DNA of 36,711 bases from Theionarchaea archaeon (GTDB lineage Archaea; Methanobacteriota_B; Thermococci; Methanofastidiosales; SZ-28-30): contig JACVGW010000001.1 in the NCBI GenBank assembly GCA_018992565.1, positions 1-36,711 of the forward strand, in the 5' to 3' direction. This document shows, one piece after another, positions 3,001-9,000 of this stretch. The position numbers are program-made. The number at the start of each line of letters is the position of its first letter. The first letter of the stretch is position 1.

Positions 3001-6000
3001 AACCTCACGAATTGTCTCTCTAACAGGAGCTGGTATCTCTGTGGCTTCTGGCATTCCTGATTTCAGGTCGGAAGGAGGATTGTGGACCCGCTATGATCCT
3101 TCACTCTACGCATCCTACTCGAGGTTTGTTGAGGACCCTTCATACTTCTGGGAGATGCACATAGAGGTCATGCATCTCATTGACAAAGCAAGGCCCAACC
3201 CTGCACACAGAGCACTGGCCCATCTAGAAGAAGGAGGCCTCCTCAAGGGTGTAATTACCCAGAATATTGATGGACTGCACCAGGATGCAGGATGCAGCAC
3301 TGTGTACGAGCTGCACGGTACCAACAGGACGTGTTCCTGCATTGCATGTGGAAGGCAATATCCAACAAGAGAGATTGCTGCTCATATGTTCAGCTTCCAG
3401 AAAAAAGACCTCATCAGAAAGATGCGTAAGGGAGATGAAATTCCCACCTGTGAATGTGGTGGATGGATAAAACCAGATGTCATCCTCTTTGGCGAGAAAA
3501 TGCCGTACGAGACTGTTATAGCTGCAGAAGAACTTGCATCGTCCTGTGAGCTTCTCCTGGTAATAGGAACAAGTCTCAACGTTCAGCCCGCTGCATCCCT
3601 ACCTTTCACTACCAAGCACAGTGGGGGCTCAATAGCCATTATCAATAGAGAACCCACCATCCTGGACAGGATAGCCGACCACATGGTTCTGGGAATGGCA
3701 GAAGAAATCCTCCCTGACCTGGTGAAAAGAGTGGGCAGTACTATCTGAGTGCAGATCTCACCTTTTCTGGAGTCAGAATACCATACTCAGTGATAAACCC
3801 TCTGAAGTATTTGAGAGGAGTTCCATCAAAGTAGTAATTCTTCACTCGAATATTCTCATGTCCTTCAACGAGGACTTCATCAGGGTCTTTTTCTTCAATA
3901 GTGACATCTCGTCTGGTAAATTTGCTGGTAGAGCATGCAACATACGTGGGGAAACACTTTGCCAGCAACTTCGTACCGATCTTATTGATAACATAATGGG
4001 GAGTAACTGAATCTGCACCTACCAGGACAAAATCTGGGTTGAACAGGGAGGCAGCAGCATCCACTATGAAAATCACTTCTATGCCATTTGCAGCCAGCGA
4101 TTCTGCCAGTAATTTCCCTTCGTAGTTTGGTCTGCTCTCTGTGACAATTAGGTAGAATGGATTTTCCTTATAGGCATGGATTAAAATCTTTTCCACTGTA
4201 GAGCTTCTGCTGTGTGTGAGCACAGTGGCTCCCTTTCTGATGAGGGAGGTGCCGTACTGTACGATGATTTCCTCTGATTTTTTCAACAGCTGAACCCTTT
4301 CTTTGGTGGTGGTTCTCACACGTTCCAGTGCTTCTTCCAGAGTCTTCCCTTCTACTGCTGCATCCAGGACGTGGAAGAGCTCATTCTGAAGGGAAACCAT
4401 GCTCCGGTGAGCATCCGAAATCTTGGAGCACTGTTCTTCAATGAGGCGGAGGAACTGCTCTCTTGACAGAAAATCCTTCTCAGTAAATCGGTACAAATAG
4501 ACGAGGGCTTTTTCAGTCAACACCGCGGCTCCAGTTACGTTATCCTCTTCAATGCTCATGCATAGGGGTTCTTTTCATTGTATAAGAGTGTTTGGTTCAC
4601 GTGCACAGAAAGTGACGTTGACATGCTGTGGTCCGTCAATCAGTAAGTGGGGAGGGCCATTAACACTCCGAGAACGGGACCAGATTCCCAATAACAAAAC
4701 ACATATAAACCTGAACTGACATCGTAGTCTATGGCAGATATTATCGTCAACAGGAAGAGCTTTAAACAGCTTCCCAAGATGACCAGGGACTTCATGAAGC
4801 GAGCTTCTTCAGAAATTGACATCATAACTCGTTCTTTCACCTGGGCAGATGATGAGACTCTGGAAACCATGTACGCTCTTATAAACAAAGGCGTTAAGAT
4901 TAACATTGTAGGCAAATATGGAGATGAATCGAGAGAAGTTATAAGACAGCTGATAAAATTAGGAGCTACAGTAAAGCTTCATGAATTCGCCGGCGAAACC
5001 CGTTTTATGATCATAGATGAGAAAGAGGTTGTTTTCGCTATCAGGGAACCTCTCACTCCAACAGAACGACATTATGTTGGTATTCTGATGAAAGATGAAT
5101 CCACGTCACGAACAGTGAAACAGTACGTGTTCGATGCAATATTCAAGGAGGCTGAAGAAGCGTCATATGTCGTCTCTTGATCCCTCCCTCTATCTTTCAG
5201 GATTGCCTCTGGATTATCTCACGAACTTCTCCAGGGTTGCTTCCTATTTCTCGGCAGATTACCAGAGGATAGTACCAAAGAAGCATGCTGTGTCTGATGA
5301 AGTAATTTCTTCCATTGAGCGTTATAACCGGGAGATAGGAGCAAGTTCGCTGGTGCTTGAAAACGTTGCTCGGCTGCAGGAGAGGTCTCCAGTGGTAACT
5401 GGACAACAGCCTTGCCTGCTGACAGGACCACTGTTCGTCATATACAAGGCACTGACAGCTGTTCTCATGGCAGAGAAGTGCGGAACAGTTCCTGTATTCT
5501 GGAATGCTTCTGAAGATGATGATGCGGGAGAAGTGAACCACATCTGGGTTCACAACGGAGAGCTTGAGGAGGTTTCTGTGGCCCTGGAACCTCGACCCTT
5601 CTTCACTGCAACCATCAGCGTCCAGGAGAAAACGCACCTGATCACGATGCTCACAGAACTGACACCCCCCACCGAGTTCCGTCAGACCACTCTGAACATG
5701 ATCACTGCCTGCTCGAGGGATTTCTCCAAAATGTTTTCTCAACTCCTGTCCTCTTTATGCAGCGAATACGGACTGATCATGGTAGAACCGTATCTTTTCT
5801 GTGAGCAGACCGTTCCTCTCTACGAGGAATTGATAGCTCATCCTTTAAAGGCTGTAGCACTGGTACATAAAGCAGGCAGCAGCCTTGAAAAAATGGGATA
5901 TAAGAGACAGGTGCACAAGCAAGCAGACATGTGCAGCTTTTTCTTGCTCAGAAATGGGTACCGGCATTCAGTGACCTATGATGGGATGTTCCATGTGGGA

Positions 6001-9000
6001 AGTGAATCGCTCACCACTGGTGAAATGCTGGCTCACTTGCATGATCATCCGGACCAGGTCGTGTCATCAGTGATTTCCAGGCCACTTGTCCAGGATTTCC
6101 TCCTGTCAACAGGAGCATACTGCGCAGGACCGGGCGAAGTGTCGTATTTCGCCCAGATGAAAGGTGTATACGAATTCTTCAAGGTGGAAGAGCCTGCCAT
6201 CGTCCCACGACTCGGTGCAACTCTCATAGAACCCAAGGTGCAGAAAGTGTTGGATAAGTATGCTCTAGAGGTTCCCGAACTCAGAGAGCCAGAGAAAGTA
6301 GTAAAATCAATAGTGAAAGGGAATACTGGAGACTTCTTTGAAGCACAAAAGAGAGAGGTTCTTCAAATCATGAATGGAATCCAGGAATATATTACACATG
6401 TAGACAGCAGTCTGAAAAAGGCAGGCGCAGCAATGACCAATCACATTCTGCAGGATCTTGACAAATTGGAAGATAAGACAGCCTCTGCACTTAAGAGAAA
6501 GAACGAAGATGCACTGCAACAGGTAGTAAAAGCCTCTTCAAATTTATTTCCTCATAATACTCTCCAGGAGAGGATGCTCAACATATTTCAGTATTTGATC
6601 CGGTATAACACCGCTGTGGAGACAATATACGATTCATTTCGCGATGCCCTGCCAGGAGAGCATCTCATTCTCTACCTTGGTGATTGAATGGACATTCTTG
6701 TTTTCTCACCGCACCCTGATGATGCAGAACTGGGAGCAGGCGGGTTCCTCCTGGAGATGCGAAAGAGGGGGTATAGTACAGGAATTGTGGATCTAACCGC
6801 TGGAGAACTGAGCAGTACTGCCACTGCTGAAACTCGCGCAGCAGAAGCGAAAAAAGCTTCTCACCTTCTGGGTTTGGAAGTGAGGGAGAACCTGAACTTT
6901 AAAGACGGTAGTCTTTCAGATTCATATGATTTCCGATTACAGGTAGCTGAAATTATCAGGAAGAATAAACCCCGGGTAGTGTTGACCCCTTTTTATGAAG
7001 ATCGTCATCCCGATCATGTGGCCTGCTCTCTCATAGTGAAGGCTTCAGTCCTCTACGCACGCCTCAGGAAAGTGGGAGAGCCTCACTATATCAAGTATTT
7101 GTATTACTACATGTTGAATACCCCCTTTGTTCCAACCTATATCGTGGACATCTCGGATTCCTTCGAAAAGAAAATGGAAGTCCTCTCCTGCTATCACTCT
7201 CAATTTGGGGCAGAGGTCCCCCTTCTCAGAGACTACATACCTCATGTGAGAGCAAAAGCTGAATATTATGGATCACTGATAAATGTGGCATATGGCGAAC
7301 CATTTAGAGCAGAAGGATTTTTAAAAGTAAGTGATCCTGTTAATCCATGAGAATTGGGATCACCTGTTACCCCACCTTTGGGGGGAGTGGAGTCTTGGCC
7401 TCAGAACTGGGCCGACAGCTTTCCAAGAAACATTCCGTGCACTTCATCTGCTATGCACAGCCTTTCCGCCTGGAAGGGACAGATATCCCTTTTCACAAAG
7501 TTGACGTTCTGGCATACCCTCTCTTCAAGTTCCCCCCGTACACACTGGCTCTGGCATCCAAGATGCTGGAGGTCGTTCAGGAGGAGGACCTGGACATTCT
7601 TCACGTTCATTATGCTGTTCCTCATTCAACATCTGCATACCTGGCCAAGAAGCTGCTCAAGGATTCTATCAAGGTGGTAACCACGCTGCATGGAACTGAT
7701 GTCCAGCTGGTAGGGCTAGATCCTTCATATTACAGTATAACGAAGTTTTCTATTGAGCAGGCGGATGGTGTCTCTGCAGTCTCAGAATCGCTGAAGAATT
7801 CCACCATGCAGAAATTCAACATTGAAAAGCATATGCGGGTCATATACAACTTTGTCGACCCTAACAGGTACTGGACAGAAGATCATGAAAAGAAGATAGT
7901 CACTCACATGTCCAATTTCAGGGAGGTTAAGAGGATTCCTGATGTCATTGATACCTTCTGCAAAATCTCTGCTCTGATACCGGCAGAATTGTATCTGGTG
8001 GGAGATGGTCCTGAAATACCTTTGGCTGAAGAAATGGTCAAAAAATGCAAAATACAGGACAGGACAACGTTTTTTGGAAATATACGCTCCATAGAGGAAA
8101 TACTTGCCAGGACAGATGTATTCCTTTTGCCCAGCGGACAGGAAAGCTTTGGGCTTGCAGCCCTGGAAGCTATGGCTTCTTCAGCAGCGGTCATAGCCAC
8201 CAATGTGGGAGGACTTCCTGAAGTCATTGATCACGAAGAAACAGGGTTCTTGTGCGCACTGGGAGACACGCAGACCATGGCAGAATACGCAGTGGAGCTG
8301 CTTCGTGATGAAAGCTATAGAAAGGAAATCGGCAGGAAAGCCAGGAAAAAGGTTGAAGAGCGGTTCACTCCTGGAGTTATTGTACCTCAGTATGAAGCGT
8401 TCTATGAATCAGTGCTAACCGAGTCATAGTATGCACTGCTGCGTGGATACTGAATAGAGAATCACGACGCCAGCACGAGGTAACAGCTTTACTGCAAGAA
8501 TAAGACAAAAAAAGGAAAAGGATTATATTTCTACTTGCAGCCCCAGCTCATCCTGGAGCTCCTTGTATCTATTGCGGATGGTGACCTCAGTGACATTGGC
8601 CACATCTGAGACTTCCCGCTGTGTTTTTCTCTCGTCCTCCAAGATAGAAGCGATGTAGAGTGAAGCCGCCGCGATGCCTTTTGGACTCCTGCCAGAGAGA
8701 AGCTCTCTGTCAATTGCCTCCTTCAGGATTTCCGTGGCTTTCCTCTGAACTGCAGGGGATACACCCAGCTGAGAGGCAAACCGAGGCAGGTAATCCATGG
8801 GATTTGTGGGAGGGAGGTTAAAGCCCAATTCCCGCATAATATAGCGGTAATCCTTGGCAATCTCCTTTTTTTCCACTCTGGCATGCTCACTTATCTCATC
8901 CAGAGTCCGTGGCACCCTGCACTGACGACATGCAGCATAGAGGCAGGCAGATGCCATCCCTTCTATGGATCTCCCTCTGATCAAGTCTTCTTCCAGACAC

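Follow-up and report, generated by a model that had tools for sequence, protein, structure and literature searches.

How an anaerobic, uncultured sediment archaeon comes to hold an intact and conserved three-gene set, known from bacteria for a protective thiol, is the question raised by a Theionarchaea contig. The window analysed here (the whole stretch of 36,711 nucleotides) carries this set as bshC-bshB-bshA. Whether the genes belong to their archaeal host, where they came from and what they would make are taken up in turn.

The bsh operon and its enzymes

An ORF listing places four abutting or overlapping plus-strand genes within positions 4731–8429, behind a promoter-like motif:

4695–4712, plus strand: promoter-like footprint CAAAACACATATAAACCT, 18 consecutive invariant columns
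4731–5180, plus strand: orf149, an ORF of 149 aa (stop codon 5178–5180)
5134–6687, plus strand: longest ORF of bshC, 517 aa
5167–6687, plus strand: bshC from ATG 5167, 506 aa, putative cysteine-adding enzyme
6688–7350, plus strand: bshB, 220 aa, GlcNAc-malate deacetylase of the BshB1 type
7347–8429, plus strand: bshA, 360 aa, GT4 UDP-GlcNAc:L-malate glycosyltransferase

The bshC start at 5167 (14-nt overlap with orf149) is more likely than that at 5134 (47-nt overlap), since a length of 506 aa matches most homologues. The bshC stop directly abuts the bshB start at the next base, and bshB and bshA overlap by 4 nt. These coordinates bear out the tight same-strand operon of the preliminary description. 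Its NCBIfam equivalog scores were also obtained again with identical values, all above the cut-offs and each covering at least 96% of the model. BshC matches TIGR03998 (346.4 bits, cut-off 265.8; model positions 3–513 of 529), BshB matches TIGR04001 for BshB1 (219.7 bits, cut-off 182.5; positions 2–225 of 226), and BshA matches TIGR03999 (484.3 bits, cut-off 273.7; positions 1–374 of 375). Pfam finds PF10079 and PF24850 in BshC, a PIG-L domain in BshB and GT4 domains in BshA, with E-values of 4e-65 to 2e-145 that exclude chance matches. Among the control genomes, TIGR03998 matched only those of Bacillus subtilis, Thermus thermophilus and Deinococcus radiodurans.

Solved structures point the same way. 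Residues 1–358 of BshA match the B. anthracis (2jjm/3mbo, ~1e-109) and B. subtilis (5d00, 5.3e-96) enzymes. BshB matches 1uan (2.9e-47), 2ixd (BC1534, 1e-42) and 6p2t (BshB1, 1e-33), and its H9, D12 and H110 align with the BC1534 zinc ligands His12, Asp15 and His113 (PMC5790435). For BshC the match is 4wbd, the structure of its B. subtilis counterpart (2.6e-37), and its family-invariant columns are intact across 28 sequences (alignments A1 and A3).

The operon begins with orf149, since this gene overlaps bshC and is preceded by the promoter-like motif, which is conserved in three genomes. In the intergenic alignment of G000, G001 and G002, the 18 invariant columns stand out from the rest, which averages 72% identity. 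The TATA-like core ATATAAA (4703–4709) has its centre some 25 nt upstream of the orf149 ATG, a spacing that suggests a leaderless or nearly leaderless mRNA from this candidate promoter and putative start site. A 476-nt RNA-library contig covers 4883–5358 across the orf149/bshC junction; with a depth of 3.7 and no strand information it is a weak hint of operon expression, and could be DNA carry-over.

The preliminary description took orf149 for a TrmB-type regulator gene ahead of the operon. That assignment is rejected: the 149-aa product, whose gene overlaps bshC, aligns with no more than the first 136 of the 233 positions in the TrmB C-terminal domain (PF11495, 25.6 bits, cut-off 22.2), and the PF01978 helix-turn-helix is absent by Pfam. 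No NCBIfam family matches it, PLDc_2 stays under its cut-off (22.7 bits against 27), and the HKD motif is absent. An AF2 model (pLDDT 67.8) matches Zucchini 4ggj (5.5e-7), NucT 6ehi, TrmBL2 5bpi (TMq 0.71–0.73) and TrmB 2f5t in Foldseek. On this model orf149 is a stand-alone PLD-fold domain, effector-like, that resembles the first part of the TrmB/TrmBL2 C-terminal domain. It differs from these regulators in having half an effector domain and no winged-helix DNA-binding domain, and alone it cannot serve as a classical TrmB regulator. All 29 homologues share 81–100% identity, and the gene was found in all three genomes of the genus but in 0 of 38 other relatives. A TrmB-type protein of 286 aa, encoded in the same genome, has a C-terminal part that is 33% identical to orf149.

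Archaeal setting and origin of the cassette

The source genome is a metagenome-assembled genome (MAG) of 154 contigs (88% complete, 1.6% contamination) and the bacillithiol pathway is overwhelmingly bacterial, both of which would suit a mis-binned bacterial contig or a chimeric assembly. Against this stand the genes downstream of the operon:

8523–9434, minus strand: tfb (transcription factor B), convergent with the operon; NF001658, 478.3 bits, cut-off 384
9659–12324, minus strand: archaeal-type glmU and glmM, on the opposite strand 1.2 kb from bshA

As an archaeal marker, the tfb gene anchors the contig, and it recurs at this position in G001 and G002 (99.7% and 98% identity); it serves as context and has no part in the bacillithiol pathway. 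GlmM exceeds the cut-off of TIGR03990 Arch_GlmM (454.3 bits against 439), and GlmU falls slightly below that of TIGR03992 Arch_glmU (279.7 against 292.1). Both genes hold the same position in G001, and their linkage to the bsh operon may be coincidental. TFB and archaeal GlmM share the 36.7-kb contig with geranylgeranyl reductase and PurP. Ten genes are syntenic with the window on a 124-kb contig of G001, and the operon gene order recurs in the sister genomes G001 and G002. A 9471-nt contig from a separate run, X19, which carries no flag as a possible source, covers 4400–9306, the operon with its flanks, with 4 differences. Archaeal neighbours, synteny, the second-run contig and the TATA-like motif upstream effectively refute mis-binning or chimerism, and a complete bshC-bshB-bshA operon on a truly archaeal contig is supported.

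Within the phylum, BshC had been described as confined to one family. The counts were reproduced with TIGR03998: all four family genomes, the window genome included, exceed the cut-off, against none of the 30 other genomes of the order and 4/133 in the phylum. Outside the phylum, BshC above the cut-off occurs in the same bshC-bshB-bshA order in Bathyarchaeia (4/401 genomes) and Asgard archaea (11/400), so that a cassette unique to the Theionarchaea lineage is rejected. The novelty claimed for the lineage and the complete operon is reduced in the same way: complete operons are present in other public archaeal genomes, and the homologues that carry Theionarchaea names are already labelled BshC in NCBI and JGI records.

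The trees described here were quick-search and unrooted, with SH-aLRT as the only support, and for bacteria they draw on the best 80 of at least 595 pattern hits. Thirteen starred rows group together in the BshC tree (SH-aLRT 99): seven from the Theionarchaea family, four labelled Bathyarchaeota, one Heimdallarchaeota and one ‘Aerophobetes’. One of the Bathyarchaeota-labelled rows (L020) groups with Asgard archaea in the Asgard genome survey. A three-gene concatenated tree separates 17 archaeal-type rows, one ‘Aerophobetes’ contig among them, from 20 bacteria (SH-aLRT 95). Constraining the four family rows together gave a better tree (lnL +12.5, p-AU 0.76). Among 1.84 billion proteins, the representatives that match best, self-matches aside, are Bathyarchaeota-like or G003-like. 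The GC content is not deviant. Acquisition by this lineage, as first proposed, stands as a probable horizontal gain by the Theionarchaea family; its nearest relatives are the Bathyarchaeia and Asgard cassettes and not bacterial ones. The cassette would be part of an ‘archaeal-type’ group common to a few Bathyarchaeia and Asgard archaea.

Predicted pathway, product and use

A working orf149-bshC-bshB-bshA operon is probable, its most likely product being bacillithiol (Cys-GlcN-malate) or a close derivative. Which genes these are, how they are arranged, how well they are kept and where they occur has been observed; the product, reductant and physiological role are inferred as follows. BshA, by equivalog-level homology, would couple L-malate to UDP-GlcNAc, a donor that the neighbouring archaeal glmM and glmU could supply. 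The acetyl group would then be taken off by BshB, a predicted zinc deacetylase, and cysteine would be added by BshC. This last step is assigned by homology alone: according to PMC5790435, no in vitro reconstitution of the BshC reaction has been achieved, and neither its cysteine donor nor its true substrate is established. Malate may come from class I fumarase or malic enzyme, each encoded in 4 of 4 family genomes, where canonical malate dehydrogenase was not found (Ldh_1_C and Ldh_2, both 0/4). No measurement of the thiol is on record for this or any other archaeon (PMC7278568).

A bacillithiol analogue, built on an acceptor acid other than malate or with another amino acid or thiol, is a rather unlikely product. 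Such an analogue would suit the failure to find a canonical malate dehydrogenase, the genus-specific orf149 translationally coupled to bshC, and the N-methyl-bacillithiol that PMC12719100 describes as frequent in other anaerobes. It would also suit the divergence of BshC, the fastest-evolving gene product of the locus (78%/56% identity to G001/G002, versus 89%/80% for BshA). The window-genus BshC lies on a long branch (0.61), shares at least 50% identity inside its own homologue group and 30–38% outside it, scores 346 bits with TIGR03998 versus 436 in the family member G003, and reads GQQPCL where GQQxGL is otherwise conserved. However, all three enzymes pass equivalog models, BshA matches solved malate-using structures over its full length, the family-invariant columns of BshC are kept, and fumarase or malic enzyme can provide malate.

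No bacillithiol disulfide reductase or bacilliredoxin had been found earlier, and the same holds across the four family genomes (84–91% complete). No YpdA/Bdr match exceeds the cut-off (best 84–102 bits versus 339.9, to a TrxR-like protein), and neither YtxJ nor the PF06491 bacilliredoxin was found. As searches did not find the recycling set of Firmicutes (Bdr/YpdA, BrxA/B, BrxC), the thiol would more likely act as a cofactor of DinB-type S-transferases and as a buffer for electrophiles, metals or sulfur species. A generic thioredoxin-reductase-like flavoprotein may keep it reduced, or the reducing habitat alone may suffice. DinB_2 genes above the cut-off occur in 4/4 family genomes and 0/37 other relatives, a co-occurrence that represents one family and perhaps one event, in genomes that are also larger. 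PMC9635834 describes the lineage as strictly anaerobic, with a retained Wood-Ljungdahl pathway, so that a classical oxidative-stress role appears less needed.

This anaerobic way of life and the failure to find a bacillithiol-specific reductase or bacilliredoxin would also fit a cassette that makes no thiol, being either idle and decaying or reduced to its first two steps, with GlcNAc-malate or GlcN-malate as a solute or precursor. Such a state is very improbable, as the reading frames are intact in 4/4 family genomes, the tight overlaps and the conserved upstream motif are retained, and the ~33 distinct 90%-identity clusters of BshC of this type in public data imply long retention. All four operon genes are under purifying selection (dN/dS 0.03–0.12): between G000 and G001, the values are 0.116 for bshC, comparable to its housekeeping neighbours (flanking genes, 0.007 to 0.142), 0.104 for bshB, 0.061 for bshA and 0.034 for orf149. 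The cassette has been retained under purifying selection in every family genome searched.

Comparison with known thiol systems

The mycothiol pathway (MshA, MshB, MshC) likewise employs a GT4 glycosyltransferase and a PIG-L/LmbE deacetylase, followed by the addition of cysteine onto glucosamine. The window operon is rejected as a mycothiol pathway: its proteins score far below the NCBIfam cut-offs for MshA (55 bits versus 462.5) and MshB (26 versus 224), and BshC is unrelated to MshC.

With the bacillithiol pathway of B. subtilis and B. anthracis, the window shares all three enzyme families, at equivalog level, and the expected chemistry, and its enzymes match the solved Bacillus structures. 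The host differs in being an anaerobic archaeon, and YpdA/Bdr, BrxA/B and YtxJ were not found in the Theionarchaea family genomes searched. In B. subtilis, bshA and bshB1 lie in the mgsA operon and bshC elsewhere with panE (PMC5790435), whereas the window genes form one bshC-bshB-bshA unit with an additional genus-specific first gene and an archaeal-promoter-like motif upstream.

Divergent bsh-like clusters are widespread in Bathyarchaeia and Asgard archaea (weak BshC matches in 62/401 and ~191/400 genomes, respectively) and were not found in G000–G003. In these clusters three homologous genes also lie together, and a canonical BshA (398–418 bits, above the equivalog cut-off) stands beside a ~580-aa BshC-like protein and a BshB-like protein. 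The latter two score far below the cut-offs (69–81 and 78–92 bits), BshA is convergent and not co-directional, and the one BshC-like protein searched with Pfam has no PF24850 coiled-coil match.

The closest counterparts are the cassettes of Bathyarchaeia and Asgard (Heimdall-type) archaea, likewise hosted by uncultured sediment-type archaea. Their gene order is the same, their BshC exceeds the cut-off, and both the BshC tree and the three-gene tree put them on the same side of a starred branch as the window genes. Their BshC proteins share 28–35% identity with that of the window, and none is accompanied by orf149. An Amidohydro_2 gene and a DinB_2/MST gene adjoin bshC in Bathyarchaeota loci, the DinB_2/MST gene lying divergent to bshC in 2 of 4 loci; a ~990-aa Fe-S flavoprotein or a GltD/SudA-like pair lies upstream in Asgard loci. 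The cassette is rare in both groups, whereas it occurs in all four genomes of the Theionarchaea family.

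A bacillithiol-type operon and its enzymes

The window is the whole of contig C68 (36,711 bases), part of a 2.80-Mb metagenome-assembled genome with 154 contigs, which is 88.4% complete and 1.6% contaminated. The four genes are arranged on it as follows:

4731–5180, + strand: orf149, open reading frame of 149 amino acids
5134–6687, + strand: bshC, longest open reading frame; probable start at ATG 5167
6688–7350, + strand: bshB, open reading frame
7347–8429, + strand: bshA, open reading frame

The scores by which the preliminary description had assigned the last three genes to BshC, BshB1 and BshA were reproduced exactly, all of them above their cut-offs and in agreement with Pfam. 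BshC scores 346.4 bits against the NCBIfam model TIGR03998 (cut-off 265.8; model positions 3–513 of 529) and comprises a Rossmann-like N-terminal domain (PF10079, 214.8 bits) and a C-terminal coiled coil (PF24850, 92.6 bits). It matches 4wbd, the only solved BshC structure, at 2.6e-37 with an alignment over residues 54–512. All 45 invariant columns in an alignment of 28 archaeal and bacterial BshC sequences are kept in the window protein, among them G79 Q80 Q81, W112, E116 D117, R305 P306 and Q467 E468 R469. The BshC family was originally found through its co-occurrence with BshA and BshB, and for a true member, loss of the gene would be expected to abolish bacillithiol and let GlcN-malate accumulate. 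In all four genomes of the family (the window's own, G000; its two congeners, G001 and G002; and G003), bshC is adjacent to bshA and bshB in one operon. The reaction has reportedly been reconstituted for no BshC so far (PMC5790435).

BshB reaches 219.7 bits against the BshB1 model TIGR04001 (cut-off 182.5), compared with 42.4 bits for BshB2 and 26.2 bits for MshB, and matches the structures of TT1542, BC1534 and BshB1 at 3e-47 to 1e-33. In the alignment with 2ixd, its residues H9, D12 and H110 coincide with the zinc ligands His12, Asp15 and His113 of BC1534 (PMC5790435). BshA, at 484.3 bits against TIGR03999 (cut-off 273.7), is well apart from other GT4 families, the next of which scores 117 bits. 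It matches B. anthracis 2jjm/3mbo at about 1e-109 over residues 1–358 and B. subtilis 5d00 at 5.3e-96, and resembles over its full length the BshA enzymes with structures solved in the presence of UDP and malate. The UDP-GlcNAc genes glmU and glmM lie 1.2 kb from the operon. Class I fumarase (330–349 bits) and malic enzyme are encoded in all four family genomes, in which searches for malate dehydrogenase (Ldh_1_C or Ldh_2) found no match. The operon is real and most likely functional, and its product is probably bacillithiol or a very close derivative.

The start of bshC is likely to be ATG 5167, from which the protein has 506 amino acids, the length of most homologues; a GGAGG motif is located at 5147–5151, 15 nt 5′ of this codon. 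The overlap with the orf149 stop (5178–5180) is 14 nt from this start, or 47 nt from position 5134. The bshB frame begins directly after the bshC stop codon, and its last 4 nt are shared with bshA. Only 170 nt separate the orf149 ATG from the divergent upstream gene. The intergenic regions upstream of orf149 have diverged among the three genomes of the genus (72% mean identity), and their alignment contains 18 invariant bases, CAAAACACATATAAACCT, at 4695–4712, with a TATA-like core whose centre lies some 25 nt ahead of the ATG. This element is a putative archaeal promoter, from which the four-gene transcript would be leaderless or nearly so. In a metatranscriptome library (run X20), the orf149/bshC junction is spanned by a contig of 476 nt (4883–5358; depth 3.7), which carries no strand information and could represent DNA carry-over. 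Depth over bshB and bshA is zero in the RNA-library run, a contig-based value that proves nothing.

The first gene and the divergence of BshC

The preliminary description took orf149 for a TrmB-type regulator, an assignment that does not hold. Its match to the TrmB C-terminal domain PF11495 (25.6 bits vs. 22.2) covers only profile positions 6–136 of 233, and neither the PF01978 winged helix in Pfam nor any NCBIfam family was matched. A genuine PF01978 protein (46.4 bits; 286 amino acids) is encoded elsewhere in the same genome, at L139:1022–1882 on the + strand, which corresponds to G000:C121:20021–20881, and has a counterpart in G001. Over its C-terminal part, this protein shares 33% identity with residues 18–142 of orf149 (E 2e-3). 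On this resemblance, orf149 appears to be a regulator relative with nothing but the effector domain, and the 286-amino-acid protein is its possible parent or partner. As leads only, the protein atlas offered small archaeal proteins with a TrmB-type domain alone, at 0.91–0.92.

The AlphaFold model of orf149 is of moderate confidence (pLDDT 67.8, pTM 0.66), and its Foldseek matches comprise the single-domain PLD-fold proteins Zucchini, NucT and Nuc as well as the C-terminal domains of TrmBL2 and TrmB. The catalytic motif of the PLD superfamily is HxK(x)4D. The sole conserved histidine of orf149 at this place reads H84-E85-F86, without the lysine, so that orf149 lacks this hallmark of a PLD nuclease or phosphodiesterase.

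A word-index search returned 29 orf149 homologues, all 81–100% identical, several of which share contigs with BshC homologues. With a single query, the gene was found in all three genomes of the genus and in none of 38 other relatives including G003, where a 200-amino-acid ORF upstream of bshC was dismissed as a counterpart (no family match; hhalign probability 0.06%). As a candidate partner of BshC, orf149 is worth testing; a complex prediction from the two protein alignments scored 0.00 against a mark of 0.32, which speaks neither for nor against an interaction.

Pairwise dN/dS values between G000 and G001 (Nei-Gojobori) are 0.116 for bshC, 0.104 for bshB, 0.061 for bshA and 0.034 for orf149, and are only approximate because dS, at 0.4–1.15, is near saturation. 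Among the neighbouring genes, the same comparison gave 0.007 for tfb, 0.046–0.089 for gyrA, glmU, glmM and an eIF2B-like gene, and 0.142 for sir2. Judged by these ratios, the operon is under purifying selection. BshC is the fastest-changing protein of the locus, with 78% identity to G001 and 56% to G002, and sits on a long branch (0.61) in the BshC tree.

Host, distribution and origin of the cassette

The window contig carries archaeal genes for transcription factor B (478 bits), GlmM (454 bits, above cut-off) and an archaeal-type GlmU, together with a digeranylgeranylglycerophospholipid-reductase-family gene, PurP and gyrase A. The gyrase A gene (12333–14741, − strand; 1213 bits) is of bacterial type and lies immediately 3′ of glmM in the same direction. 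Gyrase is patchily distributed in archaea, and its presence here is in line with that pattern. The GC content of the operon, 0.45–0.49, is similar to that of the remaining window. Ten genes, from a 668-amino-acid ORF through gyrA, are collinear with a 124-kb contig of G001, and the order orf149-bshC-bshB-bshA-tfb is retained in G002. A 9471-nt contig from run X19, for which no flag as a possible source is set, covers 4400–9306 with four differences. The stretch is present in 19 DNA runs from seven studies, whose labels comprise metagenomes of marine sediment, sediment, mangrove, soil and other kinds. Close homologues carry the NCBI names “Theionarchaea archaeon” or “Candidatus Methanofastidiosia archaeon”. 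The host had been described as an anaerobic euryarchaeote, which is consistent with the loss of Mcr and Mtr and the retention of the Wood-Ljungdahl pathway reported for the Theionarchaea lineage (PMC9635834). Elsewhere in the window (21768–23729, − strand) is a 653-amino-acid Old-Yellow-Enzyme/FadH-type Fe-S flavoenzyme, conserved in G001 and with no evident link to the operon; its best NCBIfam matches, BaiCD-like (544 bits) and mycofactocin-system FadH/OYE (507 bits), are all below cut-offs.

Matches to TIGR03998 above cut-off were found in 4/4 genomes of the family, G000 included, and in none of 30 genomes from the rest of the order or seven sampled relatives of the class. The total for the phylum is 4/133, all four in the family, which bears out the proposed restriction of BshC to this family within its phylum. 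Outside the phylum, such matches occur in 4/401 Bathyarchaeia (sampled evenly across the class) and in 11/400 genomes of the Asgard phylum sample, plus one copy cut by a contig end; one Asgard carrier, G135 (locus L020), bears the NCBI label Bathyarchaeia. Among the best 80 GTDB-species loci out of at least 595 hits, 22 have the order bshC-bshB-bshA. All five full-length archaeal loci belong to these 22, as do, on the bacterial side, loci from Latescibacterota, Hydrogenedentota, Planctomycetota, Nitrospiraceae, Acidobacteriota and Dethiobacter. Eight of ten further archaeal loci have all three genes in this order, and the other two are cut by contig ends. The complete operon, put forward earlier as new, is thus present in all four family genomes but is not confined to Theionarchaea, as the same order recurs in Bathyarchaeia and Asgard archaea. 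Theionarchaea proteins are already labelled BshC in NCBI and JGI records. The Hadarchaeia locus L049, with a BshC fragment of only 169 residues and no BshA found in its genome, was not counted as a carrier.

The BshC tree comprises 84 rows (quick IQ-TREE, LG+C20+F+G4 by PMSF). In it, a group of 13 with an SH-aLRT of 99 unites all seven Theionarchaea-family rows with four Bathyarchaeota-labelled rows (one of which, L020, belongs to the Asgard group), one Heimdallarchaeota row and one “Aerophobetes bacterium” contig. Two further trees agree. In the BshA tree of 37 rows, the 20 bacterial rows make up one side of a branch with a support of 88. With BshC, BshB and BshA concatenated (37 rows, 1129 columns), the tree separates 17 rows from 20 bacteria at 95, the 17 being eight Asgard, four Bathyarchaeia, four Theionarchaea-family rows and L016. 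All trees are unrooted quick searches of compositionally heterogeneous sequences, and their bacterial rows were sampled by similarity. G003 was not joined to the genus in the free tree; a tree constrained to unite the four family rows was better by 12.5 log-likelihood units (p-AU 0.76), so that a single gain in the family ancestor is compatible with these results. In an exhaustive phmmer search against 1.84 billion representatives, the best non-self matches were P0150 (351 bits), from a cluster named Bathyarchaeota by NCBI, P0151, which is 51–53% identical to Bathyarchaeota loci, and P0152, which is 96% identical to G003. A bacteria-to-archaea direction of transfer is suggested by the sparse archaeal distribution, without support from a root. 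Locus L016 (“Candidatus Aerophobetes bacterium”, 4947–7657), which lacks a bshB between bshC and bshA, falls with the Bathyarchaeota cassettes in each of the three trees; the neighbouring genes (aldo-keto reductase, M42 peptidase, tRNA-binding domain, metallophosphoesterase, MFS) could belong to either a bacterial or a mis-binned archaeal contig.

A second, divergent type of bsh cluster, with BshA beside BshC-like and BshB-like genes, was observed in eight Bathyarchaeia loci, L100–L107 (genomes G362, G317, G377, G299, G353, G290, G338 and G272; e.g., L107:698–4210). A BshA homologue is present in 8/8 loci and exceeds the equivalog cut-off (398–418 bits), the BshC-like protein of about 580 amino acids scores 69–81 bits vs. 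265.8, and the BshB-like PIG-L protein scores 78–92 bits vs. 182.5, with the BshB-like gene within 1.5 kb in 5/8. Weak BshC-like matches occur in 62/401 Bathyarchaeia and about 191/400 Asgard genomes. An Amidohydro_2 gene recurs beside canonical and divergent clusters alike (L017:3729–4682, L026:3219–4271, L121:8105–9058 and L100:336–1277).

Recycling, possible thiol use and comparison with known bacillithiol systems

The preliminary description had noted no bacillithiol disulfide reductase or bacilliredoxin, and dedicated searches of the four family genomes (84–91% complete) agree. The reductase Bdr/YpdA (TIGR04018, cut-off 339.9) was found above cut-off in 0/4, as were the bacilliredoxins BrxA/B (PF06491) and BrxC/YtxJ (TIGR04019), controls for both of which match Bacillus subtilis. 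The best Bdr/YpdA match reached 84 bits in a six-frame genome search and 102 bits as a called ORF; it is a TrxR-like flavoprotein (G000:C120) that fits thioredoxin reductase better (250 bits, itself below the cut-off of 343). Directly upstream of bshC and on the same strand, two Asgard loci (L020:1788–4775 and L123:1758–4709) encode an Fe-S flavoprotein of about 990 amino acids with 2Fe-2S, Fer4_20, Pyr_redox_2 and Nqo3-like domains, which could be a candidate disulfide reductase; in a third (L024:2496–4798), a GltD/SudA-like pair replaces it.

The DinB_2 superfamily includes bacillithiol and mycothiol S-transferases. Matches above the Pfam cut-off, with no equivalog assignment, are present in 4/4 family genomes (2, 2, 3 and 6 matches) and in 0/37 other relatives, a co-occurrence that, being limited to a single family, possibly reflects one event. 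At two of four Bathyarchaeota loci, a DinB_2/MST-like gene lies divergently beside bshC (L026:4293–4928, − strand; L121:7602–8084, + strand). The mercury methylation gene hgcA of Theionarchaea is transcribed in mangrove sediment (PMC11205478), and in Thermus, Hg(II) is buffered by bacillithiol (PMC8261052); that the thiol is linked to mercury handling in Theionarchaea is an idea only.

The locus is a clean test case, being a compact operon that is under purifying selection and occurs in all searched members of an archaeal family, and a single cloned fragment could show whether bacillithiol is made by archaea. The cassette is shared by three archaeal phyla, and the absence of the known reductase and bacilliredoxins raises the puzzle of how a bacillithiol user manages without them. 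Coupled in translation to bshC, orf149 is a candidate factor for the unsolved in vitro reconstitution of BshC. A joint reading of these observations is speculative and, taken whole, rather improbable. Under it, bacillithiol-type thiols would be real in archaea of anoxic sediments, and the canonical cassette would move between archaeal phyla, having become fixed in the Theionarchaea family but occurring only sporadically among Bathyarchaeia and Asgard archaea. A second, strongly diverged version (canonical BshA, BshB-like and BshC-like of about 580 amino acids) occurs in about half of the Asgard genomes sampled and in some 15% of the Bathyarchaeia. The thiol would work without Bdr or bacilliredoxins, and orf149, translationally coupled to a fast-evolving BshC, could be an accessory protein of the kind suspected behind the failure of BshC in vitro. 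The organisms are uncultured, and the annotation is already in databases.

A 2020 review gives 39 archaeal InterPro matches each for BshA and BshC, mostly Asgard, and two for YpdA, with the thiol detected in no archaeon (PMC7278568); these Asgard counts may reflect the divergent clusters. A 2025 RefSeq survey lists the complete pathway in no archaeon (PMC12719100). Among the open full texts consulted, that review alone covers Asgard archaea together with bacillithiol, and none links the bsh operon to Theionarchaea or Bathyarchaeia. For a lineage not discussed in print in this context, the present analysis adds to these accounts the absence of the recycling enzymes, a genus-specific first gene and a cassette shared among several archaeal groups.
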